This document shows, one piece after another, positions 42,088 through 58,115 of a stretch of DNA of 64,000 nucleotides. The notes beneath the pieces were generated by a model, which ran no database searches, was not told the origin of the DNA, and saw only the letters and a program-made list of their open reading frames with translations. The stretch lies in sequence record OR449013; one strand, given 5' to 3'. The stretch comes from Escherichia phage Mangalyan. Numbering within the stretch: position 1 is the stretch's first letter; each line of letters begins with the position of its first letter. Position numbers and translations under genes: made by a program.

Positions 42088-42303
42088 ATGAAGATAGAGA
42101 TATTTGGTGGAGCTGACAACACTCGTGGCCTGATTTACCTTGAATTCGATGAATCATACCTGCCAGAGGTGTTAAATATGGACTCTGTTGCTGAGGCTTT
42201 GGGAGTAAGTCCTAAAGATCTCCACTCTGGTGCTGAGATTGATGGTTGGGAGGAGACCATGAACATCGATTTCAGTGAAGTAGGGGATGAACCACTGGAC
42301 TGA
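42088..42303 (+). CDS. small acidic protein (71 aa), MKIEI-type
   Basis: ATG after CAGAGGAG; last rightward gene. Confidence 0.55.
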   Translation: MKIEIFGGADNTRGLIYLEFDESYLPEVLNMDSVAEALGVSPKDLHSGAEIDGWEETMNIDFSEVGDEPLD

Positions 42304-42430
42304 CACACAATTAGTTGCCCGGCTAAAGTGCTGGGAGCACCCATAACACATCTTTCAACTAAATTTTCTACCACCACAATCACTTACCTCCCACACATGA
42401 CTGTTTGCTTGTTTAGTGAGCAGTCATGCC

Positions 42431-42458
42431 TTGACATTCTTGCCTATCCTGATAAAAT
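42431..42458 (+). promoter_or_regulatory. candidate sigma70-like promoter at entry to ORF-free zone
   Basis: TTGACA 42431-42436, 16-bp spacer, TAAAAT 42453-42458; no ORF downstream. Confidence 0.4.
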
Positions 42459-42654
42459 TAAGTTCTTCTCTTTTCTTTTACCGAGTAATTCGGGTTTTCT
42501 GTTCTCTTCGGTTTGAAGGGGTATGGAGATACACCTGAGTGAACAGGGTGAACAACCGAACCATTGGCTATGGCATTAGCATGGCGAAGCGGACGGGTGA
42601 CGAAAGAGGGGCCGGAGGACACCAGTCACTGCCATATGATATATGGGTGATAAC

Positions 42655-43193
42655 CTGAAGAGTCTGAATAAGTGTTTAAGTACCAGTCAGAGGAAAAGGT
42701 GAATGGTAGCCGAAGGGGGAGGGGGGTTACCTGCTTCTGTAAACATGCATCTGAAATACTACTTTAGATAACCTGAACCTGCCTTTCTGACAAATATTCC
42801 CTATTAAACTTGAATTATTTATAGAAAATACCACAACACCACTTAAGTCTTTGATTTTACACACAAATCTTACAGATATTAAACCTCTCTATTTAACATA
42901 CCTGTAACATATACTATACTCCACCTGTCTGATCAATTTCCCCAACTACATCCCCATATTTTCCCTGTCTGTACTACCCCTGCCCCGCCGGGAGTCCCGT
43001 CATATCTGGCTTTCCAGCAAATATCACACCCACAAATATCATCACCTGAAGAGGGTTTCATCCCATAATACATGCCTTACCTGAAGAGCGCTTCATACAC
43101 CACATAAATTTTTTAATTGACCCCCTCCCCGCCGCCGGAGAGGTTGGCTTTTCCCACACAGACCTGGAGAGTCAGCCAGAAATATCTGAAGAG
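42655..43193. repeat. four dispersed copies of about 15-bp motif CCTGAAGAG(G/C)G(T/C)TTCA
   Basis: CTGAAGAG at about 42655, 43046, 43081, 43186. Confidence 0.7.
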
Positions 43194-43750
43194 GGTCTAG
43201 TTCTGCCCTGTCATAAGCGGTAGCGACTGGAGTGCTGCTAGGCGGACGAAATGGGAATACTTCTCATTCTTATAACAATTCTCAAATATCGAGGCAGTGA
43301 GGCAAATTAATAGGTGAGGCCGTTCACACAGTGGCACAACATTTGCAACCTATCTTGTGGGATTGAATGAGAATACCTATCATTGTGAGAACTGTTATCA
43401 TTACGGGCAATTTAACATAATACCCATTATGCGCACCACTGGCGATACATACAGGGATTGATAACATGGGTTACTGTTTACGCACATAACAATTATATTT
43501 CTTACTATTTGTGTGGGATATAGTTAGCAGCCGATAGATTAGATATTAACCTGCAGACTTCTGACCGTCCAGACGTCTAAACGCCCACACACCAAGGATT
43601 ATACATACACTCCTGAATGTAAACAGGGCCGCAAAAATGCTACCATACAAGCTTGTAAATTTTTCATGCAGCACTTGACAAAGAGGAGAAAAACTTGTCT
43701 GACATAATGTGACCTAACTGACACAACATGACACTTTTACACACCTATTA

Positions 43751-43820
43751 GTTTACACACTGGATTGTTTACATTCCTGATTGTTCACATGCTAACCATT
43801 TACATGATTGACTGTTTACA
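43751..43820. repeat. iteron-like array: five copies of GTTTACA (variants GTTCACA, ATTTACA) at 15-16 bp spacing
   Basis: copies starting about 43751, 43767, 43783, 43798, 43814. Confidence 0.75.
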
Positions 43821-43833
43821 CACCGATAATCAG

Positions 43834-44083
43834 CCATGCCATTCGTTTGCATGACAATAATTATACATGACAATAATCGCACTGATCATAATTAGCATGA
43901 CATAATATAAAAGCAGGGCAACTATTAGCAGATCTATAGTTGCCTTGCTTGTTATGTCATGATTAACTAAATACAAGGCAACTATGATCTGATTAATAGT
44001 TTGCAGACAAACTATCACGGGGGTGATGGTTACTGCTTTTATATTATGTCGCGACTCCGTCGCGCCATGCCATTCGTTTGCAT
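43834..44083. repeat. direct 19-bp repeat CCATGCCATTCGTTTGCAT (two copies) flanking inverted repeats GGCAACTAT / ATAGTTGCC
   Basis: 19-mer at 43834-43852 and 44065-44083; palindrome arms at 43917-43925 / 43936-43944; second related palindrome about 43977-44005. Confidence 0.7.
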
Positions 44084-44697
44084 AGTTGCCTTATTGTTAC
44101 AGATAAAATAATTGTATTGTTAATTATTTCTTATCTTTCTATTAGTCATCTAATGATTTCAGTTAATATAGTAACGTACAGTAAACATTAGACGACTAAA
44201 GATTTCTATGCTTATGGTAACCTAACGTGACAATTCCAGACTGTTTACGAAAAATGTTGACACCTGGGCCGATTTATGTTATGCAGTTTACACGAATAAT
44301 TATTTTATGCAGGTATTGACTATTCCGTTATTCTATGGTTGGAATAAATGCTTAGCAGGCTATAGAATGGCGAGCGTACGTAAATTCTGAGATCTGGCGG
44401 CTATAGTTATACTCGATTTTTCACGTAGAAAACGCTTTTGTAGTTATGTAAGTGTATGACTTATAAAGTTGACAAGCTATTGAATATATGCATCAGGTTA
44501 AATTTTGTGCAAATGCTGCATTACGTGCAATTTTGGAAGGAAAAACGTGTAAAAATGGCCCTGCTACCACACAATGAAAAATTATGCAATAGTTATTTTA
44601 TATGTATGTTTGTACAGTGTGTGGGATTGATGGCTCGTCAATTATTCCACTTGCCAGGTAGGGCCGTTTATGGTAGGGGGAAGAGCAGACAAAAAGA

Positions 44698-44715
44698 AAG
44701 GGGCCTAAGCCCCTT
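44698..44715 (-). terminator. rho-independent terminator for leftward transcripts
   Basis: AAGGGGC CTAA GCCCCTT; on minus strand followed by UCUUUUUGUC. Confidence 0.65.
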
Positions 44716-44733
44716 GATAATTCAGTTAAAAAA

Positions 44734-45153
44734 TTATAATGATTCGTATATTTCAAAAATCCGATTTGCCAGGTCGTTACGGTAGCGGAATTTTTCCTCG
44801 CGTTTGATCATAAGATCTTTATAGCCGTACTCTTTAAGCACTTCATTAACTTTATGGCGGCATACTTTCATATTATCCTGCGCGTCACCAATAAATCTGT
44901 TGCTATGGTGCATGGCTTTAATTTCTTCTTCCAGGACCAGGGCAACTATGCGGACCGGATCAAGCTGATAGGCGGTAACATCCATGCGGCATTGTAGACG
45001 GCTTTTAACGTCTGCCACCGGATATACTGCAACCTCTTCCCCGTCAACATTGACAATAATTAGTTTACCATCGATTTCGAATCCTTTCGCCGCCGGACCG
45101 TGACAAAAAGCGTTATCAAAGCTATATGCCGGATTATTAGATTTAATGTTCAT
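44734..45153 (-). CDS. hypothetical protein (139 aa)
   Basis: ORF followed by terminator. Confidence 0.55.
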   Translation of the reverse strand: MNIKSNNPAYSFDNAFCHGPAAKGFEIDGKLIIVNVDGEEVAVYPVADVKSRLQCRMDVTAYQLDPVRIVALVLEEEIKAMHHSNRFIGDAQDNMKVCRHKVNEVLKEYGYKDLMIKREEKFRYRNDLANRIFEIYESL

Positions 45154-45296
45154 GGTGTTTTTACCTCTTAGTTAATTTTCTTACAACTCCCCTTCAAAAA
45201 AGAATATAGCAAAACTGCCGATCCCTGTCAACCAGGGATAGCATAATTTTTATGTGATCAAGGGGCTTTATTACCCCCTGACCGTAACTTGTTGTA

Positions 45297-45632
45297 TTAT
45301 TTGTTGCTCATCCAGTTTTCCCAAGCTGCCTGATAATCTGCCTCACTGCGGCGGATCTCTTCTTGTTCTTCAAGCCGGATCTCTTCTTCCAGGTACCCCA
45401 GGATATCGGATTTTTTGGTCTGGCGTAGCATCCAGTCATCTTTTTTGCGAGTAAAGATCTTATAAGCTTTCTCGCAAACCTCTTTTTTGCTACCTTTTTG
45501 GACTTCAAGAATTCTGTAGGCCATGTACTGAACTAATTTAAGCTGATCCAGACGTTTCATGATGTTTTCCTCTTTATGCGGTTCGTTTTGATTAGTTGAT
45601 AATACAGCAGTTCGCAGATCAGTCTTTAGCAA
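45297..45632 (-). CDS. hypothetical protein (111 aa)
   Basis: ORF in leftward block. Confidence 0.5.
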   Translation of the reverse strand: MLKTDLRTAVLSTNQNEPHKEENIMKRLDQLKLVQYMAYRILEVQKGSKKEVCEKAYKIFTRKKDDWMLRQTKKSDILGYLEEEIRLEEQEEIRRSEADYQAAWENWMSNK

Positions 45633-45638
45633 TTCATG

Positions 45639-45857
45639 CTATTTACTCACAACGGTGTCGAAAACAAATTTTTCTTTGTTGTCTAAACTCACGTATCCGA
45701 TTCGACCACGCAAGCCGCAAGTAGTGCCGTACTCGTAACCATTAAGGCCTTTAACCTTCCAATCCGTACCCATTAAAACCGCATTATATTCCTGACCAAC
45801 TACAAAAGCGCCCCCAGTCGATTCAATGCAAACAACTTTAATTTTACGGGTTGTCAT
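45639..45857 (-). CDS. hypothetical protein (72 aa)
   Basis: ATG preceded by AAAGAGAGAAAG and upstream GC hairpin. Confidence 0.5.
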   Translation of the reverse strand: MTTRKIKVVCIESTGGAFVVGQEYNAVLMGTDWKVKGLNGYEYGTTCGLRGRIGYVSLDNKEKFVFDTVVSK

Positions 45858-45917
45858 TTTCTTTCTCTCTTTGTGTGGTTCTGATTAGTGGGCCTTTTGG
45901 CCCGTGTCATTATCTTA

Positions 45918-46190
45918 TTACTTACGGCGGCAGAATTCAAGCGTTTTTAATTGATAATCTTCCTCAGCCTGGAGTACAACCGCCTCGATCATTTCGTTGG
46001 CATTGTTGAAGCCATACCCTTTAGCGAACTCATCCGCACCACCTTCGTGATCATGTTCTGCGTTCATCGCTTCCACGAAATGGAATTCAAGATTATTGAG
46101 ATAAGGGCTTGATGTTCCGTCCTCTTTTTCGATGAGATCCCAAATAGCATTAAAACGTGATTCGACTTCTTGATTAATCCAGCTTGACAT
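45918..46190 (-). CDS. hypothetical acidic protein (90 aa)
   Basis: ATG preceded by AGAAGAGAGGAAA and GC hairpin. Confidence 0.5.
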   Translation of the reverse strand: MSSWINQEVESRFNAIWDLIEKEDGTSSPYLNNLEFHFVEAMNAEHDHEGGADEFAKGYGFNNANEMIEAVVLQAEEDYQLKTLEFCRRK

Positions 46191-46401
46191 AATGTTTTCC
46201 TCTCTTCTGGTTGTTGTGTGGGCACTTTTGCCCCTTCAAGATAAATGTTACCCCACCACCTGGCAGATGTCAACGGTTTTTATAGTTCTTATATGACAGG
46301 CAGGCCCGGTGATTGTCTCCACCCGTCGCCAGGTGCCTGCCGTGAAACAAGTATAACAAAAAACAGGACCATTGCAAGCCCTGTTTTGTAGTTTATAAGG
46401 A

Positions 46402-46593
46402 TTATATTTTTTCGCCTATGTAGTCCGGTCGGTTTTTCTCTGTCATGCGCTTGAGCAATTCTTGCATGTTGCTTATGGCTTGCAGTGTATCCCCTTCCAG
46501 GCTTGAATCGACATAATCAGGATCGTCTATGACCTTTCTATGATTATGATAACGCAGTACCGCCAATACCTTTCTAACTTGTTCGATATTCAT
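46402..46593 (-). CDS. hypothetical protein (63 aa)
   Basis: ORF only. Confidence 0.4.
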   Translation of the reverse strand: MNIEQVRKVLAVLRYHNHRKVIDDPDYVDSSLEGDTLQAISNMQELLKRMTEKNRPDYIGEKI

Positions 46594-46607
46594 TTTTTAT
46601 CGCTCTT

Positions 46608-46741
46608 TAAAACAAGGTGCCAACCGTTTCCAATAGATCACTGACCATCAGGACAATACTGATCAGCACATATCTAACCATAAGGGGAAAGAGCGCCAGC
46701 GATCCCGCCACGATCCCCATGGTAATAATTATCTTTCTCAT
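46608..46741 (-). CDS. hydrophobic mini-protein (44 aa)
   Basis: below cutoff; start overlaps stop of upstream gene; MRKIIITMGIVAGSLALFPLMV. Confidence 0.3.
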
Positions 46742-46743
46742 GG

Positions 46744-47028
46744 TTAACGGTTCACGTAAGTTTTCCCGTTTACGGTTATCGGCAGATCCTCCAGGTCTGG
46801 ATCTTCTTTAAGGTCGCGAGCAAGCTCACCGCACCGGATACCCTCGAATCCGTAGTACTCTGTTGTGCCGTCCTTAAAAGTTTTTGCGGCAAGGCATAAC
46901 CGATAAGTAACACCGATTTGATTGACTGCATGAATATCTGTTAGATTAACCTCTTTTGCCAGCTCTTTGGCCATTGCAGGCGCATTAAGTCCAACAACCA
47001 GGGCAACCACTGCGATCATCTTTTTCAT
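46744..47028 (-). CDS. secreted or periplasmic protein (94 aa)
   Basis: N-terminal signal-peptide-like MKKMIAVVALVVGLNAPAMA. Confidence 0.55.
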   Translation of the reverse strand: MKKMIAVVALVVGLNAPAMAKELAKEVNLTDIHAVNQIGVTYRLCLAAKTFKDGTTEYYGFEGIRCGELARDLKEDPDLEDLPITVNGKTYVNR

Positions 47029-47117
47029 TGTGTCTATCCTCTTTCTGCTGCGTTTAAGGCGGTCACCGCCGCCTGTTTATGCTTTGTTAGTTAATGGGGC
47101 GCACGGTATAGATTAAA

Positions 47118-47342
47118 CTATGCTGTACGCTCAACTATAACAACGGCTTGAGGGATCTCACCTTCCACCACTATCAAGGCTTTTTTCTGCGTAATGGATA
47201 TCTTTACCCGTTGCAGCGTGGCGGTGAAGTCTTTCATTTCGTCACGTGGTGTTTTAGTGCAATGCCAGATCTCAGGTTTGCCGATCTGCAAGCCGCGTAA
47301 AAATTCCGTTTTGCCTGTTTTGTTAGTTATCATTTGATTCAC
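47118..47342 (-). CDS. hypothetical protein (74 aa)
   Basis: ORF in leftward block. Confidence 0.45.
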   Translation of the reverse strand: MNQMITNKTGKTEFLRGLQIGKPEIWHCTKTPRDEMKDFTATLQRVKISITQKKALIVVEGEIPQAVVIVERTA

Positions 47343-47347
47343 CTCAA

Positions 47348-47452
47348 CCGATACCGTGGGAAGATAGGATCATGTTAGCCATAGTTGCAACCAATCCAAC
47401 CAATAATGCCAGGCCAACTACTACAACCGTGAAAATTTTTTCTAACATGATT
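47348..47452 (-). CDS. hydrophobic mini-protein (about 34 aa)
   Basis: below cutoff; MLEKIFTVVVVGLALLVGLVATMANMIL; preceded by GC hairpin and GAGGG. Confidence 0.3.
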
Positions 47453-47525
47453 CTACCCTCAGTAATGGCGGGAAGTATTCCCGCGCTATGTAGTACACTT
47501 TACCAGATTGTTGACTGTTGTCAAA

Positions 47526-47750
47526 CTAATTTTTACAAGGGATCAGTAAACTTCTTGCTACTGCTTCACGTAGTCCTTGACTTTTTATCAGATCTATTGT
47601 TGCAGGATGGCAAGTAAAAGCCTTTGACCATTTTTGATCCCCTGGTTTACGGGCAAAAATGTAAACTTCCCCGTCGATTTCATCCCAACGAGTATTGCTT
47701 GTTAGTTTTTTAAGCGCCATGATGATTTCTCTTTTAGTTGTGAGCGGCAC
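47526..47750 (-). CDS. hypothetical protein (about 64-74 aa)
   Basis: ORF; alternative internal start MALKKL. Confidence 0.4.
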   Translation of the reverse strand: MPLTTKREIIMALKKLTSNTRWDEIDGEVYIFARKPGDQKWSKAFTCHPATIDLIKSQGLREAVARSLLIPCKN

Positions 47751-47808
47751 TATTGCCGCCCTATATGATAAACTATACCAGAATAAAAAACAGTGTCAAG
47801 CTATTTTA

Positions 47809-48048
47809 TCACATTCCAACCATCGCGGCACGGATCGCCGTAGTGCTGTACTTGAAGCCGTCCGGGGTCTTATCTTGTCCGGTTAGCTCCAGAAAAAGCA
47901 TCATATCCCGCGCCGCATCATTACGATTAGCATTAGCGTTAATAAAGCCTTGGGCCAACCGGTACAATGACTCATCGTTATTAATCCAAAGGCTTACATT
48001 CCAATGAGTTTTGTTTTTGTAACCGTTATAACCTTTATTGCTTTTCAT
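47809..48048 (-). CDS. hypothetical protein (79 aa)
   Basis: ATG preceded by AAAGAAGAGG. Confidence 0.5.
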   Translation of the reverse strand: MKSNKGYNGYKNKTHWNVSLWINNDESLYRLAQGFINANANRNDAARDMMLFLELTGQDKTPDGFKYSTTAIRAAMVGM

Positions 48049-48394
48049 GGTGTTTACCTCTTCTTTGTTCCGGGTGGAGGATCATTCTACCACCTTATGT
48101 ATTATGCTTTGTTAGATGGTTGTTTGTTGCCAAACTATTTTAACGATAATCATCATATGCTTTATTTACCTGGCGAATATAACATTCAAAAGCCAGATCA
48201 ATAGATTTATATTCACGGATATACTCACCATAGGAAACCACATACATTTCTATAGCTTCCTCATATGCGAGGAGAATAGAATCTAAGCCTACGATCTCAG
48301 TTTTTGCAATAATAGCCATGATTTTTATCCTCTTTGTGGTTGGTGGGGCTTGTTGCCCCCTTTGATTTATATACTACAGTTTTATATGGTCATG

Positions 48395-48628
48395 TCAACA
48401 CTTTTCAAAAAATTTTTCTGCCGTGATATTCTTCCCGGTAGGGTTCGCTACTTTCAAAATTTTATCATGCACTGGACGCCCAAAAGAATAAGATCCGTAT
48501 ACAGTAAACCAATAATCTCCGTCAGGCTGTACTATTACCGCCGCATATGGTACGCCTTTTTCGTTTTTGCTGACAAAATAGATCACATTACCATTAATAG
48601 CCTCAGCGCGTTTAATTTGTTCCATCAT
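48395..48628 (-). CDS. hypothetical protein (77 aa)
   Basis: ATG preceded by AAAGAGAGG and GC hairpin. Confidence 0.5.
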   Translation of the reverse strand: MMEQIKRAEAINGNVIYFVSKNEKGVPYAAVIVQPDGDYWFTVYGSYSFGRPVHDKILKVANPTGKNITAEKFFEKC

Positions 48629-48695
48629 GATGATTTGCCTCTCTTTATTTTTTTTATGATTTTATGCTGTAGGGGCCTTTTCGGCCCCGCCAGGT

Positions 48696-48980
48696 TTATT
48701 TATTGATAGCGTGCAGCGGGAAAGCTACGCCAGGTTGATAGATAACCTTTACAACCTCATCAGGACAAAAGAAATTGCAGAACTCACCGCAATAGGCCTC
48801 ATCCTCTTTTAATTCTTCATCAACATACTCAAAAAAGTAGTCGATGCTTGGATAATCCTGGCCGGGATTATAGTCGACCATCGTTAATAATAACTCTTGA
48901 TCATTCCGTAAGATATGCATACCCGCTTTTAAGTATTTTGCTTCCATTTCTACTGCATCGCCAGCGGTAACAATAGCCAT
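48696..48980 (-). CDS. hypothetical protein (94 aa)
   Basis: ATG preceded by ATAGGAG and GC hairpin. Confidence 0.5.
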   Translation of the reverse strand: MAIVTAGDAVEMEAKYLKAGMHILRNDQELLLTMVDYNPGQDYPSIDYFFEYVDEELKEDEAYCGEFCNFFCPDEVVKVIYQPGVAFPLHAINK

Positions 48981-49203
48981 GGTTTTAACTCCTATCTATC
49001 CGGTTAATGATTTGGGGCCGCCCCCTGATGCGTCCTATTATCCATATTGTGGGGCTTGATGCAAGTACTTCTTTAAAAATTTTTTAAGCGCCTTGGGGCC
49101 GCTGTAACGCTAAAATAATAAAGACCATGCAACCGCATAGCCTTAATGTGATTATATCGCTGCAGGCCCTGCTAGGGGCCTTATTTTGCATCATTTACCG
49201 GAA

Positions 49204-49512
49204 CTATACAGAGAAAACATCGTTCACAATAGCGATCACAATGCCGCCCACCTTGTCACGGTCAACAATGCACAAATCACCATAGATCATGTGGTAGTCT
49301 GGATGATCTTTCACAGAATAGTCAATAAGCGTTTTCTTGTCGTCCAGCTTCGTAACTTCCATTCTCATAACGATATGAGAATCATCAAAGGCATTATTCC
49401 GAAAAATCATAGCCTGGCCGCCAGGGCACCCGGTGATCTCCACTTCCACACCATCTACGATCTGACCATCAAAGAAATAAAGATTATTAGCCTGGATAAA
49501 CATGCCTATCAC
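49204..49512 (-). CDS. hypothetical protein (102 aa)
   Basis: ATG preceded by AAGGAG. Confidence 0.5.
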   Translation of the reverse strand: MIGMFIQANNLYFFDGQIVDGVEVEITGCPGGQAMIFRNNAFDDSHIVMRMEVTKLDDKKTLIDYSVKDHPDYHMIYGDLCIVDRDKVGGIVIAIVNDVFSV

Positions 49513-49549
49513 TCCTTGTTAACTGCGTGGTATTTTAACAGGGTTTAAA

Positions 49550-49598
49550 TTTACTTTATTGATGGCCTTGGAGTCAAGGCCATCTAAAAATAAATTTT
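49550..49598 (-). promoter_or_regulatory. conserved about 46-bp element (copy 1 of 3): hairpin GATGGCC-N10-GGCCATC with TTGACT in loop, leftward promoter-like
   Basis: near-identical copies at 53291-53337 and 53912-53957; on minus strand reads TTGACT, 18-bp spacer, TAAATT. Confidence 0.5.
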
Positions 49599-49797
49599 AC
49601 AGGCCTACAATCTCTTTAATTCGTTTTACTGCTGCCTCAGCGCCTTGAGGGTAAAAATTATGGTAACCAATCACGCGAGTGATACTAATCGCCGTTTGAT
49701 GATCTTCATAATCACCTTTAAAGATTTCTTGACCGTCAATCAGCACGGCAATTTTTTCTTCTTTTTTGAAGTTAATAACGCGGATATTGTTGCTCAT
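49597..49797 (-). CDS. hypothetical protein (66 aa)
   Basis: ATG preceded by GAAAGGAGAAAC and 5' GC hairpin 49829-49843. Confidence 0.5.
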   Translation of the reverse strand: MSNNIRVINFKKEEKIAVLIDGQEIFKGDYEDHQTAISITRVIGYHNFYPQGAEAAVKRIKEIVGL

Positions 49798-49851
49798 TTT
49801 GTTTCTCCTTTCTGGTTTTTGTGGTGGTGGGGATTAGCTCCCCGTTGATTG

Positions 49852-49881
49852 TTATTATCCACATTCCGGACCGGATTGCAA
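49852..49881 (-). promoter_or_regulatory. leftward sigma70-like promoter followed by 5'-proximal GC hairpin
   Basis: minus-strand TTGCAA (49876-49881), 17-bp spacer, ATAATA (about 49853-49858); hairpin GGGGA-TTAGC-TCCCC at 49829-49843. Confidence 0.45.
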
Positions 49882-49928
49882 CACCCCGGAAGAATTTTTT
49901 TTTTTTTAAAGATAGGCCCCCATGATCG

Positions 49929-50048
49929 GGGGCCGTTCTTAGTTACTTACAGCGATAAAGTACATCCCTACGCCTAGCAATATTTCAAGGGCGATAATCT
50001 CAAGCCATACCATAACGCGGCGCACCTTATCGGTGCGGGGCTTATCCT
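49929..50048 (-). CDS. hydrophobic mini-protein (39 aa)
   Basis: below cutoff; GGGGGAG RBS; MTPKDKPRTDKVRRVMVWLEIIALEILLGVGMYFIAVSN. Confidence 0.35.
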
Positions 50049-50224
50049 TGGGTGTCATCGTCTCCCCCTTCCCTTCTGGTAGTAGTGACGTGGTTTACAA
50101 TGGCCCCCAGGAGTATTATCACCACGCACATTACAAGAAAAATTATCTCTGTCGTTGTTCGATCCATTGTTATAAAATTCCTTAAGATCAGGCCTGAAAA
50201 TAAAGCTTTCATTATTGAATCCAT
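50042..50224 (-). CDS. small membrane protein (up to 60 aa)
   Basis: ORF with hydrophobic core IIFLVMCVVIILLGAIV; start uncertain. Confidence 0.3.
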   Translation of the reverse strand: MDSIMKALFSGLILRNFITMDRTTTEIIFLVMCVVIILLGAIVNHVTTTRREGGDDDTQG

Positions 50225-50277
50225 CCCGCCAGGCGGCTGGCCTCAAATCTTCACTAAATGGATTAATTAACGTGGTA

Positions 50278-50682
50278 TTATTTAAACGGCTGGCCCACAT
50301 ATTTTCTATTCCTCTCAAATAAGCGATCCGCCTCAGTTAAACAAATCTCATGGGCGTGATCTCTGGTTTTAGCTTCATCGAAAACCTGTTGTGCAAGGCT
50401 GCAACGTAGGGAGACTGGAAGATCACTATAATAGGCGTTGACAAACGTTTGAGCGTCGTACAGGTCGGAAAATACTTTACCCTTTCTATTATTCCCCTTG
50501 TCAACAATTGCAAGGATAACCAATACAATAGTTGCAACCACCCCCAGGAAAATAGATATAATAAACCATAAAAAGGCGGATCTTCCCATCTTGCCAGCGA
50601 TCCAGGCGTTAAACAAGGCAACCAATACAGCCAAAATAATAAATTCCATTCTATGTACCTCTTTTACAGTTCTGATTAACAA
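50278..50682 (-). CDS. membrane protein (134 aa, two TM segments)
   Basis: FIILAVLVALFNAWIAG and FLWFIISIFLGVVATIVLVILAIV. Confidence 0.55.
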   Translation of the reverse strand: MLIRTVKEVHRMEFIILAVLVALFNAWIAGKMGRSAFLWFIISIFLGVVATIVLVILAIVDKGNNRKGKVFSDLYDAQTFVNAYYSDLPVSLRCSLAQQVFDEAKTRDHAHEICLTEADRLFERNRKYVGQPFK

Positions 50683-50713
50683 TAAGGCGGCAAATATGCC
50701 GCCTGTTACCTGA

Positions 50714-51094
50714 TTAAAAATTATCGCCGTAAATCTTTCCGCTTTCTACCCATACCACCACGCGAGGCATACTATCCCACACGTCTTGTTTTAGATTGAG
50801 CGCGTGCAATTCTTCGGTGGTGCTCATACCGGGCACGGGCTGATTGTATACTGCAAAACGACCGCCTGCATAATCATAGGCCAGGGTTAAATCACACTGG
50901 ATCATCTTTTTGATCATGGCATTAAGCATGGCGTTAGCCGCATATTGGTCACGTTTTAAAGGCAACTCTTTGATTAGTTTGCGATAGTTTTCGATATGGT
51001 CGCACACTGTTTCACGCGGAAGATCTTTCATATCCTCGCGAAAGGTAACCAGGTTAAACATAACGGTGTCAATAGCCTTGGTAGTGTTTTTCAT
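50714..51094 (-). CDS. hypothetical protein (126 aa)
   Basis: ATG preceded by AAAGAGGATAAAATC, 5' hairpin 51119-51139 and promoter. Confidence 0.55.
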   Translation of the reverse strand: MKNTTKAIDTVMFNLVTFREDMKDLPRETVCDHIENYRKLIKELPLKRDQYAANAMLNAMIKKMIQCDLTLAYDYAGGRFAVYNQPVPGMSTTEELHALNLKQDVWDSMPRVVVWVESGKIYGDNF

Positions 51095-51148
51095 GATTTT
51101 ATCCTCTTTGTTTTGTGTGGGGGCAAACGTCTTGCCCCCTTGAGTTTT

Positions 51149-51176
51149 AATATAGCAGGTTTTTAGGTTATTGCAA
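51149..51176 (-). promoter_or_regulatory. leftward sigma70-like promoter followed by 5'-proximal GC hairpin
   Basis: minus-strand TTGCAA (51171-51176), 16-bp spacer, TATATT (51149-51154); hairpin GGGGGC-N9-GCCCCC at 51119-51139. Confidence 0.5.
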
Positions 51177-51184
51177 CACTTTAT

Positions 51185-51808
51185 TTATGAAAAAGTCATC
51201 TCGCCATATTCATCCACATCAAACCGCCAATCATTGGCCTCGATAAGGCCGATCAGGTTTTCGGTAGTGAATTGTTCAAGATAGGCCCCCTCCAGGTCTA
51301 CGTAAACCTTGCGGGATAGCTCCCGTACCGTCTCGGTGATCAGCTCTTCCAGGTCTTCCACTTTGTTTTCTTGTTTGGCGGTCAGATCTAGCCAGGTGGT
51401 ATCAATGTATCCGCTTACAGTGTTTTCATGGCTGTAATGGCTGTACTTGTCGCGTTCAACACTGGCCGATAACTCGCCATCGTGCATTGTGCCGAACAAG
51501 TGACGAATTGATCGGAACTTGGTCAGGGCCTTGACTTTACGCAAGAATTTTTCTAAGTCTACATTTTCAGCACTAATCGATGCGCCATCGCCTTGACACC
51601 AAAAGCCGGACCAATGTACTTCGGTATCTTCAAGGCCGTACTCTGGAAAAACTTGTTCTTTATAGTATTCAATTACATTTTCTGCAAAAAAGTTATCCCC
51701 GCTGTGTTCTTCTCTTTCGCGTACCATTTCAATGGCTTTTTCTTTTTGTTCGTCGGTCAGCACGTCGAAAGATAAATTGTAACCTGTGGTAATGTTAACG
51801 GTGGTCAT
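51185..51808 (-). CDS. hypothetical protein (207 aa)
   Basis: ATG preceded by AACAGGAGAAAA; contains HWSGFWCQGDGASI block that I cannot assign. Confidence 0.55.
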   Translation of the reverse strand: MTTVNITTGYNLSFDVLTDEQKEKAIEMVREREEHSGDNFFAENVIEYYKEQVFPEYGLEDTEVHWSGFWCQGDGASISAENVDLEKFLRKVKALTKFRSIRHLFGTMHDGELSASVERDKYSHYSHENTVSGYIDTTWLDLTAKQENKVEDLEELITETVRELSRKVYVDLEGAYLEQFTTENLIGLIEANDWRFDVDEYGEMTFS

Positions 51809-51865
51809 GATATTTTCTCCTGTTTTCTTTGTTAGTGGCGGGAAGTTTTCCCGCCTATGTTTTTA

Positions 51866-51893
51866 ATTATACTTATCAAGATTTACTTGTCAA
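51866..51893 (-). promoter_or_regulatory. leftward sigma70-like promoter
   Basis: minus-strand TTGACA (51888-51893), 16-bp spacer, TATAAT (51866-51871). Confidence 0.6.
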
Positions 51894-52143
51894 CACTATT
51901 TTTTAAATTATTGTGGCGCAAAATGTTTAAAATCTCCTCAACGTCATCAACACGGCGGCAATTTTTAAACGCTACCAATTGCCCCAAGATTTTAATTACT
52001 GGGCGGCCTTGCCAGTGACCTTGAAGAAAGCGCGCTTTAACTTTATCGGTGGAACTATCACGCCACCAAATAGCCTTGTTGTTGCAGTAGTAAAAATTAT
52101 TCAGGATAACATCAACCTTATCAAAATTTTTTAATTTACGCAT
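51883..52143 (-). CDS. hypothetical protein (86 aa)
   Basis: ATG preceded by AAAGGAGTAAACGCC. Confidence 0.5.
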   Translation of the reverse strand: MRKLKNFDKVDVILNNFYYCNNKAIWWRDSSTDKVKARFLQGHWQGRPVIKILGQLVAFKNCRRVDDVEEILNILRHNNLKNSVDK

Positions 52144-52175
52144 GGCGTTTACTCCTTTCTCTCTTTGATGTGGTT

Positions 52176-52203
52176 AGTATAGCTAACCTGTTTAAGATGT
52201 CAA
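52176..52203 (-). promoter_or_regulatory. leftward sigma70-like promoter
   Basis: minus-strand TTGACA (52198-52203), 16-bp spacer, TATACT (52176-52181). Confidence 0.55.
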
Positions 52204-52386
52204 GCTTTAAATAAAATCACTGTCAATAATATTTTTAACGCCATAAAACGGTCCTGGGCGATGTTTTCAGGTTAAAGGGGGCGATTTTGCATAGGTGGGG
52301 GCCTTTTTGGCGCTTACAGGGCCAACCAGGGGCGCTATTCGTAGGATAGAAACAAAAAGCCCCGCACAATGGCGGGGCGTTGGTTG

Positions 52387-52584
52387 TTATTTGTCTTTAT
52401 GGCGGTACCGTTCCGCCTGTCGTTCACGTTCCAAAAGTAGGCTGGGCAATTTACGATCATAATGATTGCGCCAGATCTTCCCAAACCTTTTTGGCTTATT
52501 CAGTTTATTGTTACGCTGGCGGCGTTCCGGCAGCTCTTCGGAATCATGAGGGCGCTTTACAATTTTCTCGAAATTAATTTTCAT
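52387..52584 (-). CDS. hypothetical basic protein (65 aa)
   Basis: ORF overlapping upstream stop. Confidence 0.45.
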   Translation of the reverse strand: MKINFEKIVKRPHDSEELPERRQRNNKLNKPKRFGKIWRNHYDRKLPSLLLERERQAERYRHKDK

Positions 52585-52991
52585 ATATTCCCCCCCTTGC
52601 TAACTTCAATATTGGCCTGAATGGCCCGGATACGGCGCTTTATAACTTCCTGATCTGTGTGATCGTATCCCCAAAAGTCCACAATTTTTGCGCCCCCCGC
52701 CTCCAGGCGGTATAGTGTTTCCTGCATTTTGTAAGCCGGGATCGGTCGCGGTGTTACTTGGTCACCTTCTTTATTTTTATACTTTATAATATAATCTTCG
52801 TTATCGTTAAATGTCCAAAATGGATATTCTGCAAGGGCGGTACTTCCTCTTTCCTTTTTATCCTGGATCTTGTTTACAATTAAAGCCGTAGCAATAGCGC
52901 CAATAATAAAACTAGCCCCGCTAATCATGTACTTTCTCCTTTCATTGTATTGATAAACTATCTTTATAGATGGCCCTGCAACCAGGACCAC
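52581..52991 (-). CDS. hypothetical protein with N-terminal TM anchor (136 aa)
   Basis: ISGASFIIGAIATALIV hydrophobic segment. Confidence 0.5.
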   Translation of the reverse strand: MVLVAGPSIKIVYQYNERRKYMISGASFIIGAIATALIVNKIQDKKERGSTALAEYPFWTFNDNEDYIIKYKNKEGDQVTPRPIPAYKMQETLYRLEAGGAKIVDFWGYDHTDQEVIKRRIRAIQANIEVSKGGNI

Positions 52992-53002
52992 CGAAAAAAT
53001 AA

Positions 53003-53248
53003 CTATTTCACAATGCCTACAAAACAGATTCCGCCTTCACCTATATAGGCAATATCGGTAATTTTATAATTTGTCAAGATCCGCGTGTTCAGCTCATTAA
53101 TAAAATCGGTCATCGCGTTGGTGTAGTTGTCTTCCGTATCTAAGGCATAATCCCAGGTGTAAACCTTTTTACGTCCGAAGCCTTTTACCATGATACGGGC
53201 GCTTTTGGTGTTGGTAGGGGCATAATATTTGGTGATTAGTGCTGCCAT
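53003..53248 (-). CDS. hypothetical protein (81 aa)
   Basis: ATG preceded by ATAGGAG. Confidence 0.5.
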   Translation of the reverse strand: MAALITKYYAPTNTKSARIMVKGFGRKKVYTWDYALDTEDNYTNAMTDFINELNTRILTNYKITDIAYIGEGGICFVGIVK

Positions 53249-53290
53249 GGTTTTAACTCCTATGCATTAGTTCAGTGTTAACAGTATAAA

Positions 53291-53337
53291 GTTTACTTTA
53301 TTGATGGCCCTGGTGTCAAGGCCATCTAAAAATAAAT
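53291..53337 (-). promoter_or_regulatory. conserved about 46-bp element (copy 2 of 3)
   Basis: TTTACTTTATTGATGGCCCTGGTGTCAAGGCCATCTAAAAATAAA; minus strand TTGACA, 18-bp spacer, TAAACT. Confidence 0.5.
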
Positions 53338-53679
53338 TTACTCGTTTTCTTCCAGTTCTGCAAGCTCTTCTTTCACTTCTTCCAGCTCTGTCTGCAATTC
53401 TTGGTACTCTTCATCGTCCTCAATATCCAGGCTGTCGATGTAGTCGCTAAATCCGCAGCGGTAAGCGATAGGATCTAACTCCTTGAGGATACGCGACGGA
53501 AGAAAAGAAATGTTTCCGATCATAATTTCGCCATAGATCTCGTCTAGCCATTCATCATAGTTTTCGTCGTACTTGTCCTCGTCGATTTCAAAGTTATCGA
53601 TCTTGTTCTCAAGGTCTGCGATCTGTTTTTTCAGCGCGGCGATCTGAATAGCTTTTTCTGCGGCGGTCATAGTAGTCAT
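53338..53679 (-). CDS. hypothetical acidic coiled-coil protein (113 aa)
   Basis: ATG preceded by AAAGGAGAAAACACC. Confidence 0.5.
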   Translation of the reverse strand: MTTMTAAEKAIQIAALKKQIADLENKIDNFEIDEDKYDENYDEWLDEIYGEIMIGNISFLPSRILKELDPIAYRCGFSDYIDSLDIEDDEEYQELQTELEEVKEELAELEENE

Positions 53680-53729
53680 GGTGTTTTCTCCTTTTTGTGT
53701 TTTGGGAAGTTTTCCCGTTTACGTGTTTA

Positions 53730-53757
53730 AGTATACCGATTTGGGTTAGCTTGTCAA
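53730..53757 (-). promoter_or_regulatory. leftward sigma70-like promoter
   Basis: minus-strand TTGACA (53752-53757), 16-bp spacer, TATACT (53730-53735). Confidence 0.55.
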
Positions 53758-53911
53758 TTAAAAATTTAAGAAAAATTTTGCAAAACTGTTGGCGCTACCC
53801 ATCAACATTTGCGCCAGGATGTACCCAATGATGCAAACGATGATGGTTACCTTTGTGTGCTGGCGTGTAGTGCTCATCTTTAAGCCTCCTTTTCCGCTCA
53901 ACTGTGGTTAG

Positions 53912-53957
53912 TTTACTTTATTGATGGCCCTGGAGTCAAGGCCATCTAAAAATAAAC
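53912..53957 (-). promoter_or_regulatory. conserved about 46-bp element (copy 3 of 3)
   Basis: TTTACTTTATTGATGGCCCTGGAGTCAAGGCCATCTAAAAATAAA. Confidence 0.5.
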
Positions 53958-54353
53958 TCAATAAGTTTTTAGTACTTTCCCGTCCAATCTGTCAAGCTGG
54001 ATCTCGATAGCTGCAGAAAACCTATTGTAAACCACATCGCCCAGGGAGTCCAGCCAATCTATGACGTTATATACCTGCTCTTTATTCTTGCAAGTCCGGA
54101 TCCGTTTCATTACGTAAGACGGATCAATATTAGCGCTCTCGTTGTTGTGGTCCTGCGCCTGGCCTGCTGCGCTAATTATAGATTTTACAACCACCTGAAA
54201 GGGCTTTAAGGTGCCTTTTGCGTTCATCTCACGCGCTTTTGCGGCGCGGTTGTTATATGTTACACAACGGCGGCAAATGTTGACCAAATGCATATCAATA
54301 ATTTTTTCATCGTTTGCCAGTTCGTTCATGATGCGGCGTACGTTCTTATTCAT
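53958..54353 (-). CDS. hypothetical protein (131 aa)
   Basis: ATG preceded by AAAGGAAAAAGATC and GC hairpin. Confidence 0.5.
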   Translation of the reverse strand: MNKNVRRIMNELANDEKIIDMHLVNICRRCVTYNNRAAKAREMNAKGTLKPFQVVVKSIISAAGQAQDHNNESANIDPSYVMKRIRTCKNKEQVYNVIDWLDSLGDVVYNRFSAAIEIQLDRLDGKVLKTY

Positions 54354-54435
54354 GATCTTTTTCCTTTGTGCTGGCGGGAAACATTCCCGCCTTTTGTGTC
54401 TAGTTTACTTAAATTTTGCAGCGTGTCAATGATTT

Positions 54436-54834
54436 TTATTCGTGGGCGCATGTTACAATGTGTTTTTTATAGCCCAGGTGGTCAGCAAGTGCCGACAAAA
54501 ACTCTTCTTCGTAGATCCAGCCGTCGGCAGTGATCCCCATAGCATTTAATGCGCTCTCAAGTGCTGCGTTAGCTTTATCGTAACCGTGACCGCTCGCCTT
54601 GCCGCCAGTATAACCGTACTTATTGTTCTTGTTGTCGTGAATCCAAAACACGCAGTAGTGAGTGTTCCCGCTGGCGGCGGCATAATACCGGATCTCAGCT
54701 ACTTCGTGCAAATTATTGTCATCGTCCAGGCCCACCAGATTATAAGCCTTGTAAAATCCACGATCACGGCGGCAGTTCTTGACATCAGAAAAAGAAAAGT
54801 CCGCATTATCAAAATTAAAGGTAGTGGTTTTCAT
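54436..54834 (-). CDS. hypothetical protein (132 aa)
   Basis: ATG preceded by AAGAGGATAAAATC. Confidence 0.5.
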   Translation of the reverse strand: MKTTTFNFDNADFSFSDVKNCRRDRGFYKAYNLVGLDDDNNLHEVAEIRYYAAASGNTHYCVFWIHDNKNNKYGYTGGKASGHGYDKANAALESALNAMGITADGWIYEEEFLSALADHLGYKKHIVTCAHE

Positions 54835-54898
54835 GATTTTATCCTCTTAGTGTCTTTTGTGCTTTTAGTGTATTTGGTGTCTGACTATATGTCAATAC

Positions 54899-55096
54899 TT
54901 ATTTTTTATTAAACCAGTGGTTGATCTGGCCTTTTGTCAGGGCGCAACGATTAAGCTGTTGCCGGGTATAGCTCTGACCGCGACGGAATTTATAAAGGCC
55001 TTGCCCGTTGTTGATGGTTACGTCCACCTGGCAAACCATTTGATCGGTGACGGCCTGGCGAGTGTTGCGACGTACTTTAATTCCGTAGGCGTTCAT
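54899..55096 (-). CDS. hypothetical basic protein (65 aa)
   Basis: ATG preceded by AGAGAGGATAAAAAATC. Confidence 0.45.
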   Translation of the reverse strand: MNAYGIKVRRNTRQAVTDQMVCQVDVTINNGQGLYKFRRGQSYTRQQLNRCALTKGQINHWFNKK

Positions 55097-55465
55097 GATT
55101 TTTTATCCTCTCTGTTAATTAGTGTGGTGTTGTTCACCTTGCGAGGATAAGAATAACAGAACTATCCGAGCTGTCAACCATTAGTTAGAATTATTTTTTG
55201 GGCAGAATTCTCCAGCCGCCGCCCCTGCCAGGTTAACCATCATTTTTTCGTACTCTTCTTTATGTTCCAACGCTCCCGCCATAGCCTTTTCAACCAGGGC
55301 GATAACTTCAGCGGCATTGATCGCTACATTTTCCAGGGGATTATATTACTTTTCATTTTTGTACCTCTTCTGTAGCTGCTTACTTTATAGCGTGGACCTG
55401 CCAGGCTGGCCCCGCCAGGTTGCAACGGTTAGCGCATCAGGTTAGAATTTTTTTTTTGAAAAGTG

Positions 55466-55494
55466 TTGACAGCGGCCCCGCCAGGTGGCACAAT
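55466..55494 (+). promoter_or_regulatory. candidate rightward promoter driving tandem structured units
   Basis: TTGACA 55466-55471, 17-bp spacer, CACAAT; GC-rich spacer GGCCCCGCCAGGTGG. Confidence 0.4.
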
Positions 55495-55510
55495 ATACCT
55501 ATCGAAAGGA

Positions 55511-55735
55511 CGGCAGGCACCGGTGACGGGGGAGACAACCACCGGGGATGGGCGCTGCATAAAATGAGAACGGTTATCATTATCATTTAAAAATTTATGC
55601 AAAAAGTCCTTGCTTTCTTTGTCCTGTGTGATACTATAATAACAAGCCGGGGCAACAGGGGCCGGGAGACAATCACCGGGGGTGCCCGTTATTCTGCAAA
55701 CGAGAATGATTATCATTCAAAATTCTAAATGAGAA
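55511..55735 (+). ncRNA. two tandem about 85-nt related units (candidate small structured RNAs or regulatory elements)
   Basis: unit A about 55511-55600 and unit B about 55649-55735 share GGGAGACAAYCACCGGGG and GAGAAYGRTTATCATT; second unit preceded by TATAAT 55635-55640; no ORF with RBS. Confidence 0.3.
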
Positions 55736-55899
55736 CTCCTCGCATTTAATAAATTTAATTAGCATGCTAATTACCCTCCGTAACAATTTCCTATAAAACA
55801 GTATCCCATAAAATATTCCCATATAGAAATTTTAAAAATCCATTTCTGAAAACGAAAAATCGATTTCGTCCCCAAAAATTTCAGGTCGAGATCCGGAAC

Positions 55900-56025
55900 G
55901 ATTTCCAGAAAATCCGATTTAGAAAACGAAAAACAGATCGAGTACTGAGAAATTTATCGAGAAAAATTTTCAGAAAATCCAAGCCATGAAATGAAAAGTA
56001 GATCGAGTACTGGAAAAATTGTACC
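55900..56025. repeat. tandem about 65-bp AT-rich direct repeat (two units) within a larger repeat-rich spacer
   Basis: AGATCGAGTACTG at about 55935 and 56000; CAGAAAATCC at about 55908 and 55971; GAAAACGAAAAA at about 55849 and 55922. Confidence 0.7.
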
Positions 56026-56319
56026 GCAACCCACTGATAGTGATGGGTTTTCCGTCATAAATCACTAAGAGTGAGTGGAGAAAGGTATGGTGGAGAGGTG
56101 TGTATGTGTGGGAAATATGGAACGGTGATCTCGAGTATGGTGCAAACGGCTAGATAGATTGGCACAATTTTCCGCGCTTGTGTTGAAAAAATCCATTTTA
56201 GTTTTCGATCCATTTTCTGATTTTCTAAGAATTTTAAAATATCTATGTGTTCAAAATATCAGGAGAAAATACATTTTAGAAATTCCCCTGATTTCTGGCA
56301 ACTTGGCAATTTAAAAATA

Positions 56320-56652
56320 TCAGGTGCCCAGTTTGTTCTTTCCTTTATATAAACGCAAGGGTATAGTTTTTGTAACAGTCCACCTTCCCACACCTTCCCA
56401 GTTCCAGTTGTAGGCATGGTACCCGGTTACGCATGCACTGCTAGAGTGGTCATAGGCATAAGAGAACGCTATACGCACCAAATGGAACCAGTCTTTCCAC
56501 GGTTGTGGTCCGTAAGCTTTTCTCCAACACCGACACAAACTAAATGTCTCAAGAATAGGCAGGATAACAAATCCATACACCGCCACCAGAATAGCCAGCG
56601 CAATGATTGTCAGGAATACATACCCTGCAGTTGAAACGATGATCTCTGTCAT
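56320..56652 (-). CDS. membrane protein (110 aa)
   Basis: N-terminal YVFLTIIALAILVAVYGFVILPIL. Confidence 0.5.
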   Translation of the reverse strand: MTEIIVSTAGYVFLTIIALAILVAVYGFVILPILETFSLCRCWRKAYGPQPWKDWFHLVRIAFSYAYDHSSSACVTGYHAYNWNWEGVGRWTVTKTIPLRLYKGKNKLGT

Positions 56653-56852
56653 TTGTCGTCCCCTTTCTTACGGATATAGATGTGAGAGCCTGCCTGTATA
56701 TAAATTTCTCGACCATCTTCTGCAAAGATATGAAATACACGATCACCTTCATACTCGATACGTGATATCTTCATAATGGTCTTTCCACCTGGGATGCGGA
56801 TCTCGTCCCCCACAGCGATGTTCCATGCAGATTTAAGCTTAAACATCTGCAC
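56649..56852 (-). CDS. hypothetical protein (67 aa)
   Basis: ORF overlapping neighbours by 4 nt. Confidence 0.5.
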   Translation of the reverse strand: MQMFKLKSAWNIAVGDEIRIPGGKTIMKISRIEYEGDRVFHIFAEDGREIYIQAGSHIYIRKKGDDK

Positions 56853-57084
56853 CCTCCTTTGGGAACTTAAACTCTGGCATAGCCATATACGCTACAACAG
56901 GGTTGTGATCAAAGTAGAACTGACCGTTAATTATCCCGGTTTTACTCACATAGTTACCAGATCCTGCAAGAACAACCTCGCAAGCTCCGAAATCTACATT
57001 GCCATCCTCATCAGCCATGGCTACGATATACTTTCCAAGAGGCATGTTTTTAACGCCATCTACAAATGTCCACTCTGTGTTCAT
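56839..57084 (-). CDS. hypothetical protein (81 aa)
   Basis: ORF in packed array. Confidence 0.5.
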   Translation of the reverse strand: MNTEWTFVDGVKNMPLGKYIVAMADEDGNVDFGACEVVLAGSGNYVSKTGIINGQFYFDHNPVVAYMAMPEFKFPKEGADV

Positions 57085-57093
57085 ACTTTACCC

Positions 57094-57426: not shown

Positions 57427-57433
57427 ATCATAC

Positions 57434-57625: not shown

Positions 57626-57688
57626 AATACATCGCTCTCTGTTAGTTTATGCGTATATTATACACTGCAGTTTTCAGATGTCAACCTC

Positions 57689-57940: not shown

Positions 57941-58115
57941 GGGAACACTTTGAGGATTGAATCTTTACTTGGCTCGGAAGTTCTTTTTCCGTATGATAGG
58001 TAGAAATACCCTCCTGCAGATTCGAATATAGCTCCTTCGGTTGTATCTACCACAGCAAGAATTAAGATTTTAGTCTCCACAGTGCTCTCCTCTCTTAGTT
58101 GTTGTGGAAACTATA

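Follow-up and report, generated by a model that had tools for sequence, protein, structure and literature searches.

What occupies 2.4 kb of phage DNA that lies where two large transcription blocks meet and that seems to hold no gene? The question is raised by positions 42304-44733 of a 64,000-nucleotide stretch of Escherichia phage Mangalyan (sequence record OR449013); the whole stretch is referred to below as the window. An original prediction had offered several functions for this interval, namely a replication origin or terminus, a packaging (pac/cos) region or a terminal-repeat junction. Our analysis points to the terminus region, or concatemer junction, of a Vequintavirus genome in which both linear ends were merged during assembly, a reading to which we assign a probability of roughly 85%. 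Its borders and central element are:

42088-42303, plus strand: last rightward gene, 71 aa, function unassigned (PHROG 12108, E 5e-48)
43241-43699, no strand assigned: single collapsed copy of a 459-bp direct terminal repeat (DTR), by homology to exact end duplications
44715-44698, minus strand: intrinsic terminator of the leftward block (terminator scan; annotated as such in the EdH4, Gotham, Alma and Murica records)
44734-45153, minus strand: last leftward gene, 139 aa, function unassigned (PHROG 12277, E 1e-95; without a Pfam domain)

Chromosome ends of relatives fall inside the interval

A search with the 2430-base interval gave 121 matching phage records, 96 of which cover 80% or more of it at 90-97% identity. 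All belong to the genus Vequintavirus, that is, to the rV5-like myophages of E. coli, and a more sensitive search brought no other group. Like rV5, the window carries genes for RNA ligase, DNA ligase, ThyX and ribonucleotide reductase in its rightward block, and judged by its sequence it is that of a Vequintavirus, an rV5-like myophage.

The evidence for a terminus comes from a segment at which the linear records of relatives begin and end. Several of them start at query position 938 of the interval. In the EdH4 record, the first 459 bases are exactly the last 459 bases and map to 43241-43699, and the Gotham record carries a 459-bp repeat_region annotated at each end, both copies being identical. 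The window segment is 98% identical to the EdH4/Gotham terminal repeat; the repeats of EdH4, HdK5 and Gotham have the same sequence (96.7-98.3%), length (459 bp), boundaries and flanking genes, whereas the window holds the repeat once, with the ends merged. As a lone query, 43241-43699 was recovered at 90-98% identity in 119 records and lies exactly at the record end in at least seven of the phages listed (EdH4, Gotham, HdK5, ECP2309, YN3, Pr121LW and ECP2303). By homology, virion DNA would start at base 43241 on the left and stop at base 43699 on the right; 42304-43240 is the non-coding right arm, and 43700-44733 the non-coding left arm. Since the segment is found a single time in the window, the latter evidently derives from an assembly with both ends merged.

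Exact end duplication, the hallmark of short DTRs of the T7 type, is thus seen in close relatives, and the phage of the window is placed with them by 98% identity. Fixed ends are indicated by the seven records, which agree on the boundary bases, and by edges of sequence conservation that coincide with these. A cos site was rejected, as the relatives hold a 459-bp duplication instead of an overhang of at most about 20 nt; 20 bp is the threshold between cos and terminal-repeat ends in the PhageTerm paper. The large terminase gene lies outside the window. Among the functions originally proposed, a terminal-repeat junction or packaging region is therefore the one retained, based on the exact end repeats of relatives and on two papers, while origin and cos are not favored. 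The comparison with complete genomes that had been suggested for locating the physical end puts the ends of relatives' linear records at 43241 and 43699.

The repeat as such is already known: it is present in databases, and its length is given in two papers (458/459 bp). Korf et al. (2019) reported 458-bp redundancies in EdH4 and HdK5, and Dias et al. (2020) described one specific start sequence for all Gotham virions, with no doubled-coverage region in three co-sequenced phages. Both papers give the length only, and neither connects the repeat to the rV5 map or to flanking conserved elements. In that map, published in 2013, a grey box 'labeled non-coding' and devoid of ORFs is drawn at the equivalent interval. 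The link between the repeat and this blank box appears to be absent from the literature.

The interval lacks credible genes but is partly transcribed in prediction

Comparisons were based on an alignment of the window with 14 relatives at 85-97% identity (15 genomes), and 10 further assemblies were compared block by block. The borders of the interval were confirmed, as both flanking ORFs match PHROG families and the terminator scan agrees. The 71-aa gene at the left border is intact in all 14 relatives, with 3, 4 and 21 variable sites at the three codon positions; a Pfam scan of the flanking genes gave nothing informative. Inside the interval, the longest ORFs encode 62, 62 and 109 aa. None of the ORFs matches a PHROG family or shows codon third-position bias against the 14 relatives, and most are interrupted there. 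Those that stay open lie only inside an invariant block, which makes their openness uninformative. In each of 10 independent public assemblies, the gene callers left the space between the flanking pair empty. Some GenBank records annotate a CDS within the region, at positions and on strands that are mutually inconsistent. The proposal of a zone without credible ORFs is thereby upheld, and conserved protein genes, which would have spoken against it, were found neither in the ORF comparison nor in the 10 assemblies. ARAGORN detected no tRNA or tmRNA. At the gathering score Rfam 15 matched nothing in the window, and with E-values up to 10 allowed, the region yielded chance-level matches only. IMG/VR scans using both flanking proteins returned just 3-4 loci.

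The interval is indeed dense in distinct repeat classes, as had been proposed: several were found, three motifs are locally enriched, and one class folds far beyond chance (z = -10.4). Tandem Repeats Finder reported nothing in the region, so the repeats are dispersed or phased and not arrays of identical units.

Convergence of transcription was borne out with one qualification. The window holds 18 near-consensus sigma-70 promoter-like sites (at least 11 of 12 matches), each co-oriented with its own gene block: 10 on the plus strand, from 7544 to 42431, and 8 on the minus strand, at 2682 and 45231-63439. Co-orientation in 18 of 18 cases suggests that these sites are likely real, and their directions agree with convergence, but the plus-strand promoter at 42431-42458 lies inside the ORF-free zone, which is therefore probably not transcriptionally silent and probably transcribed in part. 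The distribution of the set across the blocks also suggests heavy use of host RNA polymerase. The 2013 rV5 paper expected bidirectional terminators between genes 163 and 164.

Edges of conservation lie close to the ends of the repeat

Beyond the repeat, the interval is composed of the following elements:

42396-42428, no strand assigned: 8-bp inverted repeat CATGACTG...CAGTCATG, immediately preceding the promoter and unchanged across the 15 aligned genomes
42400-42730, plus strand: block A, near-invariant 330 bp, ending in G5AG6
42431-42458, plus strand: near-consensus sigma-70 promoter TTGACA-16-TAAAAT with TG (11/12 match, extended -10 element)
42731-42803, no strand assigned: variable segment with two alleles, the window's allele in 8 phage records only
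42804-43225, no strand assigned: right arm, moderately conserved non-coding DNA (88-98%), with CCTGAAGAG repeats and two C-rich boxes
43250-43402, no strand assigned: four TGAGAA/TTCTCA cores, two per orientation, including the tandem pair ATGAGAATACCTATCATT / GTGAGAACTGTTATCATT
43700-43895, no strand assigned: hypervariable short-repeat arrays directly outside the repeat (TGACAC, GTTTACA at 16-bp phase, CATGACAATAAT; families D1 and D16)
43833-43852, plus strand: copy 1 of a perfect 20-bp direct repeat, GCCATGCCATTCGTTTGCAT (family D6), conserved in relatives
43896-44063, no strand assigned: conserved compound hairpin or long imperfect palindrome of about 155 nt, starting 197 bp beyond the repeat
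44064-44083, plus strand: copy 2 of the 20-bp direct repeat (family D6), the pair bracketing the hairpin
44085-44210, no strand assigned: AT-rich stretch, 126 bp, 24.6% GC
44211-44697, no strand assigned: moderately conserved non-coding DNA (84-96%) with weak promoter-like sites

Read from left to right, conservation sets in again about 15 bp short of 43241, once the indel-rich patch at 43200-43225 has been passed, and stops about 9 bp right of 43699, at the onset of the hypervariable arrays. With its edges just outside the repeat, this pattern indicates that the repeat and a few flanking bases are constrained, as sequence-specific cutting would predict. In the 10 further assemblies, identity to the window was 98.5-99.4% for block A, 93.5-99.1% for the repeat and 98.3-100% for the hairpin; the arrays occurred in two forms (28-41% or 99.5%).

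The arms are less uniform. The two alleles of the variable segment are unrelated; the window's form occurs, for example, in LL12 and Pr121LW, and all 14 aligned relatives carry the other one. In the right arm, whose last ~25 bp are indel-rich, CCTGAAGAG-like copies stand at 43045, 43080, 43163 and 43185, with another at 42654. The arrays vary in copy number and sequence among close relatives, and the 109-aa ORF of the outermost left arm (44211-44697) is intact in none of the 14 relatives.

A motif within the repeat is shared by three genera

The four TGAGAA/TTCTCA cores, at 43261, 43279, 43368 and 43386, compare with 0.27 expected from the rest of the window (P = 1.7e-4). Two of them make up the 18-bp tandem noted above, where some depositors have annotated a small repeat_region. 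Among relatives the cores are invariant and three central spacer bases variable, as would be seen at a protein site whose spacer is not contacted. Enrichment of this core was also found in the terminal repeats of the Phapecoctavirus Mt1B1_P17 (hereafter P17; P = 0.026) and the Certrevirus PBES 02 (P = 9e-6). The motif, TGAGAA-N-TATCATT, enriched in the repeats of three genera, appears to be undescribed. We also considered it as a Fur box and discarded the idea: the window's top two Fur-like sites, at 55566 and 55702, do not lie in the repeat.

Block A: a conserved promoter aimed at the repeat

Nowhere in the region is conservation higher than in block A: each of the 117 covering records is at least 98% identical to it, and 99 of 143 matching records at least 99%. 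When 330-bp windows over 42 kb are compared with rV5, the block comes out at the 97th percentile, equal to the best-conserved coding DNA. It had no match in E. coli genomes or in phages outside Vequintavirus. Its promoter hexamers are invariant in 15 of 15 genomes, two of which carry one spacer substitution each; the inverted repeat next to the promoter is a possible operator. This promoter is the last of the rightward set, has only non-coding DNA downstream and aims at the repeat 780 bp away. A terminator-like hairpin follows 15 nt past the likely transcript start, at 42481-42493, and no other plus-strand terminator was found between the promoter and the compound hairpin. With respect to a T7-like arrangement, a conserved promoter oriented to the repeat is thus present, with an early terminator-like element in its path. 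Four copies of GGTGA are spaced by 49, 50 and 52 bp within the block, the sole such cluster in 64 kb, and such phased sites would suit protein binding on DNA.

From its sequence, block A is a candidate for a non-coding transcript, for phased protein-binding DNA, or for both. We keep two readings of it, a transcript running towards the junction or a protein-bound recognition site; pausing of the T7 polymerase at its junction renders the former mechanistically plausible. A near-invariant block with a promoter directed at the terminal repeat appears to be undescribed, and a literature search found no transcriptome study of a Vequintavirus.

Alternatively, the main role of the region could be to encode at least one non-coding RNA, in the form of block A and perhaps also of the hairpin, that has nothing to do with the chromosome ends and serves, for instance, host takeover or anti-defence. 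The near-consensus conserved promoter within a perfectly co-oriented set, the almost invariant ~265 nt downstream of it and the lack of a coding signal are what such an RNA would show. Yet the predicted transcript (32% G, 17% C) folds no better than shuffled sequences (z = -1.64), no terminator stands at the end of the conserved block, and the block has no match in Rfam. It is too nearly invariant for covariation to be read, and the phased GGTGA sites suggest protein-bound DNA instead. An RNA locus independent of the ends is accordingly conceivable but doubtful.

A compound hairpin is conserved in shape across subfamilies

Returning to the terminus reading, the second conserved block is the hairpin on the far side of the repeat. 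The fold predicted for single-stranded 43896-44052 has three-way topology. Its outer stem, 20 bp long and invariant, pairs 43897-43916 with 44033-44052; the long first inner hairpin consists of two GGCAACTAT-N10-ATAGTTGCC palindromes paired to each other, and the second is AACTATCAC-GGGG-GTGATGGTT, followed by a small GC hairpin at 44051-44063. The DNA fold reaches -52.7 kcal/mol, compared with -19.9 +/- 3.2 for shuffles (z = -10.4), and the block is 98-100% conserved. In EdKell, a G-to-T change at 43928 and a T-to-A change at 43993 stand opposite each other in the fold; this is a reading of the sequences, short of a formal test for covariation.

P17 and phAPEC8 possess a structure of the same topology with a z-score of -9.9, which includes an AACCATC/GATGGTT hairpin and is trailed by a GC hairpin; it starts 188 bp past the repeat, against 197 bp here. 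Shape and position kept without alignable sequence are the best evidence that the hairpin works as a structure, which may be a DNA cruciform, a single-strand hairpin or RNA. A structure beside the repeat is hence present and conserved in two subfamilies, and a compound hairpin in this place appears to be undescribed.

Several sequence details surround it. In rV5 (L013) and phita32 (L021), a 33-bp insertion, TTAACATCCTCGAGACGAAGGCTATGCCTGAGT, follows 43951; placed next to the apical loop, it folds into a small stem of its own and does not disrupt the main stems. The bases right after the right cut (C, the cut, then TGACATAAT at 43700) return three times further on as CATGACA(A)TAAT (43852, 43868 and 43898). 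One copy constitutes the 5' arm of the outer stem, its complement being the 3' arm at 44033-44052. Similarly, the post-cut bases of P17, CAACATAT, resemble the start of the P17 hairpin stem.

Repeats and base composition do not favor an origin

The repeats and the palindrome of the left arm also allow the region to be read as a replication origin, or as a terminus that contains one, since the two functions are compatible. Replication might start right of the repeat, at iteron-like repeats combined with the palindrome and the AT-rich stretch, or from an R-loop primer that the G-rich block A transcript forms at G5AG6, in the manner of ColE1 or of mitochondrial CSBII. GTTTACA units at 16-bp phase, a long palindrome and 126 bp at 24.6% GC, in keeping with an AT-rich unwinding element, are consistent with the first variant, and a strong promoter followed by a G-rich, C-poor transcript with the second; the GC skew changes sign at the region. 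T7 has secondary origins at promoters adjoining its terminal repeats.

The iteron-like arrays, however, are the least conserved part of the region and differ in number and sequence among phages more than 90% identical, which is not expected of initiator-binding sites. Matches to the relaxed DnaA box TTWTNCACA number 12 in 64 kb against 8.6 expected, two of them in the region and unclustered, and the Pfam scan found no initiator domain in neighbouring genes. The cumulative GC skew peaks at 41-42 kb and is lowest near 3 kb, where transcription diverges. A maximum is what a terminus usually shows, as would be expected where replication and transcription proceed outwards to the chromosome ends; the skew is confounded by transcription direction, and its sign change coincides with the transcription switch, to which the rV5 authors attributed the GC/AT-skew change at this place. 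Forks from this site would, moreover, run head-on into both gene blocks. We therefore hold an origin in this region, alone or combined with a terminus, to be rather improbable, and as the main function it is unlikely, a secondary role being conceivable. If skew reflects replication at all, ~2600-3100 is a better origin candidate than the region studied; there, the skew minimum meets divergent transcription, with the minus-strand promoter at 2682 and the start of the RNA ligase gene at 3051.

Comparable termini in other phages

The closest counterpart of the terminus region was found in Phapecoctavirus. P17 has an exact 328-bp terminal duplication adjoining a homologue of the 139-aa gene, and a 328-bp repeat was reported for Schickermooser (Korf et al. 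2019). As in the window, the Phapecoctavirus repeat region is gene-free, has the 139-aa homologue next door, carries TGAGAA boxes and a ACAATTCYCAAATATC box in the same order, and is followed by the three-way hairpin ~190 bp on. In contrast to the window, it has no counterpart of block A, and by blastn the non-coding terminus DNA of the two genera is not alignable. That the hexamer and the box are shared all the same supports a common, old terminus design.

The 139-aa gene itself is better preserved. Its Phapecoctavirus homologues are 85-90% identical and often lie near record ends (coordinates 1245-1664 in L027 and 3501-3920 in L035). Between Vequintavirus and Phapecoctavirus its DNA is 83% identical, though the surrounding DNA is unalignable, which points to exchange between subfamilies or unusually strong constraint.

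A further terminus is that of the Cronobacter phage PBES 02 (Certrevirus, same subfamily), for which the PhageTerm paper derived a 443-bp repeat at 200-642 from raw reads. The repeat sits inside a 977-bp non-coding start, followed by genes ending near it. It resembles that of the window in its length, its non-coding setting and its four TTCTCA cores; it differs in being GC-rich and unrelated in sequence and in having no comparable hairpin (z = -2.9).

With T7 and T3, the region shares a short exact repeat with fixed ends (160/231 bp in those phages). Transcription from an upstream promoter enters the T7 junction, where pausing of the polymerase starts packaging; the window likewise has an upstream promoter. 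Short-repeat arrays flank the T7 repeat. A hairpin region next to the T7 junction is described as needed for concatemer processing. The window differs from T7 and T3 in belonging to a myovirus of ~137 kb, in its host sigma-70 type promoter in place of a phage RNA polymerase promoter, in a hairpin on the side of the repeat away from the promoter, and in a repeat three times longer. T5 has a long gene-free 'injection stop' rich in repeats and palindromes near the chromosome end, similar to the window. In T5, that stretch forms part of a 10-kb repeat and is linked to the injection of DNA in two steps, a process not known from rV5-like phages.

Points against a fixed terminus

Several points weigh against the terminus reading. 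The ends of this phage are assigned by homology only. An unclassified, more distant member of the Vequintavirinae, A7_1, has a similar gene-free gap with neither the motif nor the hairpin, and Mydovirus and Seunavirus are not syntenic at this region: no gap follows their conserved 101-aa regulator gene, and their gene order differs. The repeat motif occurs three more times at 55564-55746 and would suit a transcription factor as well as a terminase. Finally, the rV5 paper calls the genome circularly permuted, citing no end-mapping, and in a 2026 paper PhageTerm assigned headful packaging and partial permutation to the Vequintavirus BpE1AUH.

The last two reports agree with headful (pac) packaging of circularly permuted genomes, whereby the region would be only a pac site and the 459-bp 'repeats' assembly or annotation conventions. 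Against this, records from independent laboratories agree on both boundaries to the base, and 459 bp does not correspond to a k-mer overlap left by an assembler. The single specific start of Gotham, set beside co-sequenced phages without doubled coverage, and the raw-read repeat of the related PBES 02 argue in the same direction, and the PhageTerm authors themselves state that transposase libraries yield unreliable calls. Headful packaging is thus very unlikely. That the interval is a mere spacer or terminator buffer without specific function, as its position between convergent blocks with a terminator at one edge might suggest, can be dismissed almost entirely, given two blocks conserved above the neighbouring genes, a hairpin conserved across subfamilies and database-recorded chromosome ends of relatives inside it.

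Proposed packaging scheme and its significance

If the interval is the terminus, a scheme can be drawn up by analogy with T7 and T3. Terminase would recognise the junction in replicated concatemers and cut at two fixed positions, and the repeat would be duplicated by extension from staggered nicks, giving each virion a repeat at both ends. After injection, the repeats would permit recombination or concatemer formation. From the anatomy of the region, the TGAGAA-N-TATCATT boxes, block A (42400-42730) and the hairpin (43896-44063) would be the cis-acting parts, and the block A promoter would send host RNA polymerase into the junction. More speculatively, packaging in rV5-like and phAPEC8-like phages may be coupled to host transcription through a sigma-70-driven, G-rich transcript of 42465-42730, acting as a packaging RNA, as an R-loop or as a polymerase driver, with the hairpin and the TGAGAA boxes as the terminase signal; we put this forward as a long shot.

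Were this coupling true, a large myovirus would possess a T7-style junction adapted to the RNA polymerase of its host. Quite apart from it, the terminus reading accounts for the blank box in the rV5 reference map and shows where to open Vequintavirus genomes, most of which, among those considered here, are opened at other, varying positions. Packaging by fixed terminal repeats carries a lower risk of generalised transduction than headful packaging, which matters because these phages serve in therapeutic and biocontrol cocktails, with some papers calling them headful. Block A, the cross-subfamily hairpin and the shared motif are concrete candidates for packaging signals and could furnish pieces for packageable vectors or engineering.

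Further observations

A second ORF-poor stretch, at 55100-56050, lies within the leftward gene block and has no Rfam match. It holds two GC-rich hairpin modules and a plus-strand promoter-like site, TTGACA-17-CACAAT (TG), at 55466-55494. The palindromic box of the terminal repeat is present here in three copies (55564-55581, 55700-55717 and 55729-55746), and no other sites of the window agree with the E. coli Fur-box consensus as well as those at 55566 (16/19) and 55702 (15/19).

Among the records matching the interval, 19 of the series MG0656xx (e.g. L018 and L019) are UNVERIFIED, unannotated entries named 'Campylobacter phage'. They are 85-94% identical to the region and classed in Vequintavirus, and their host label is probably wrong.

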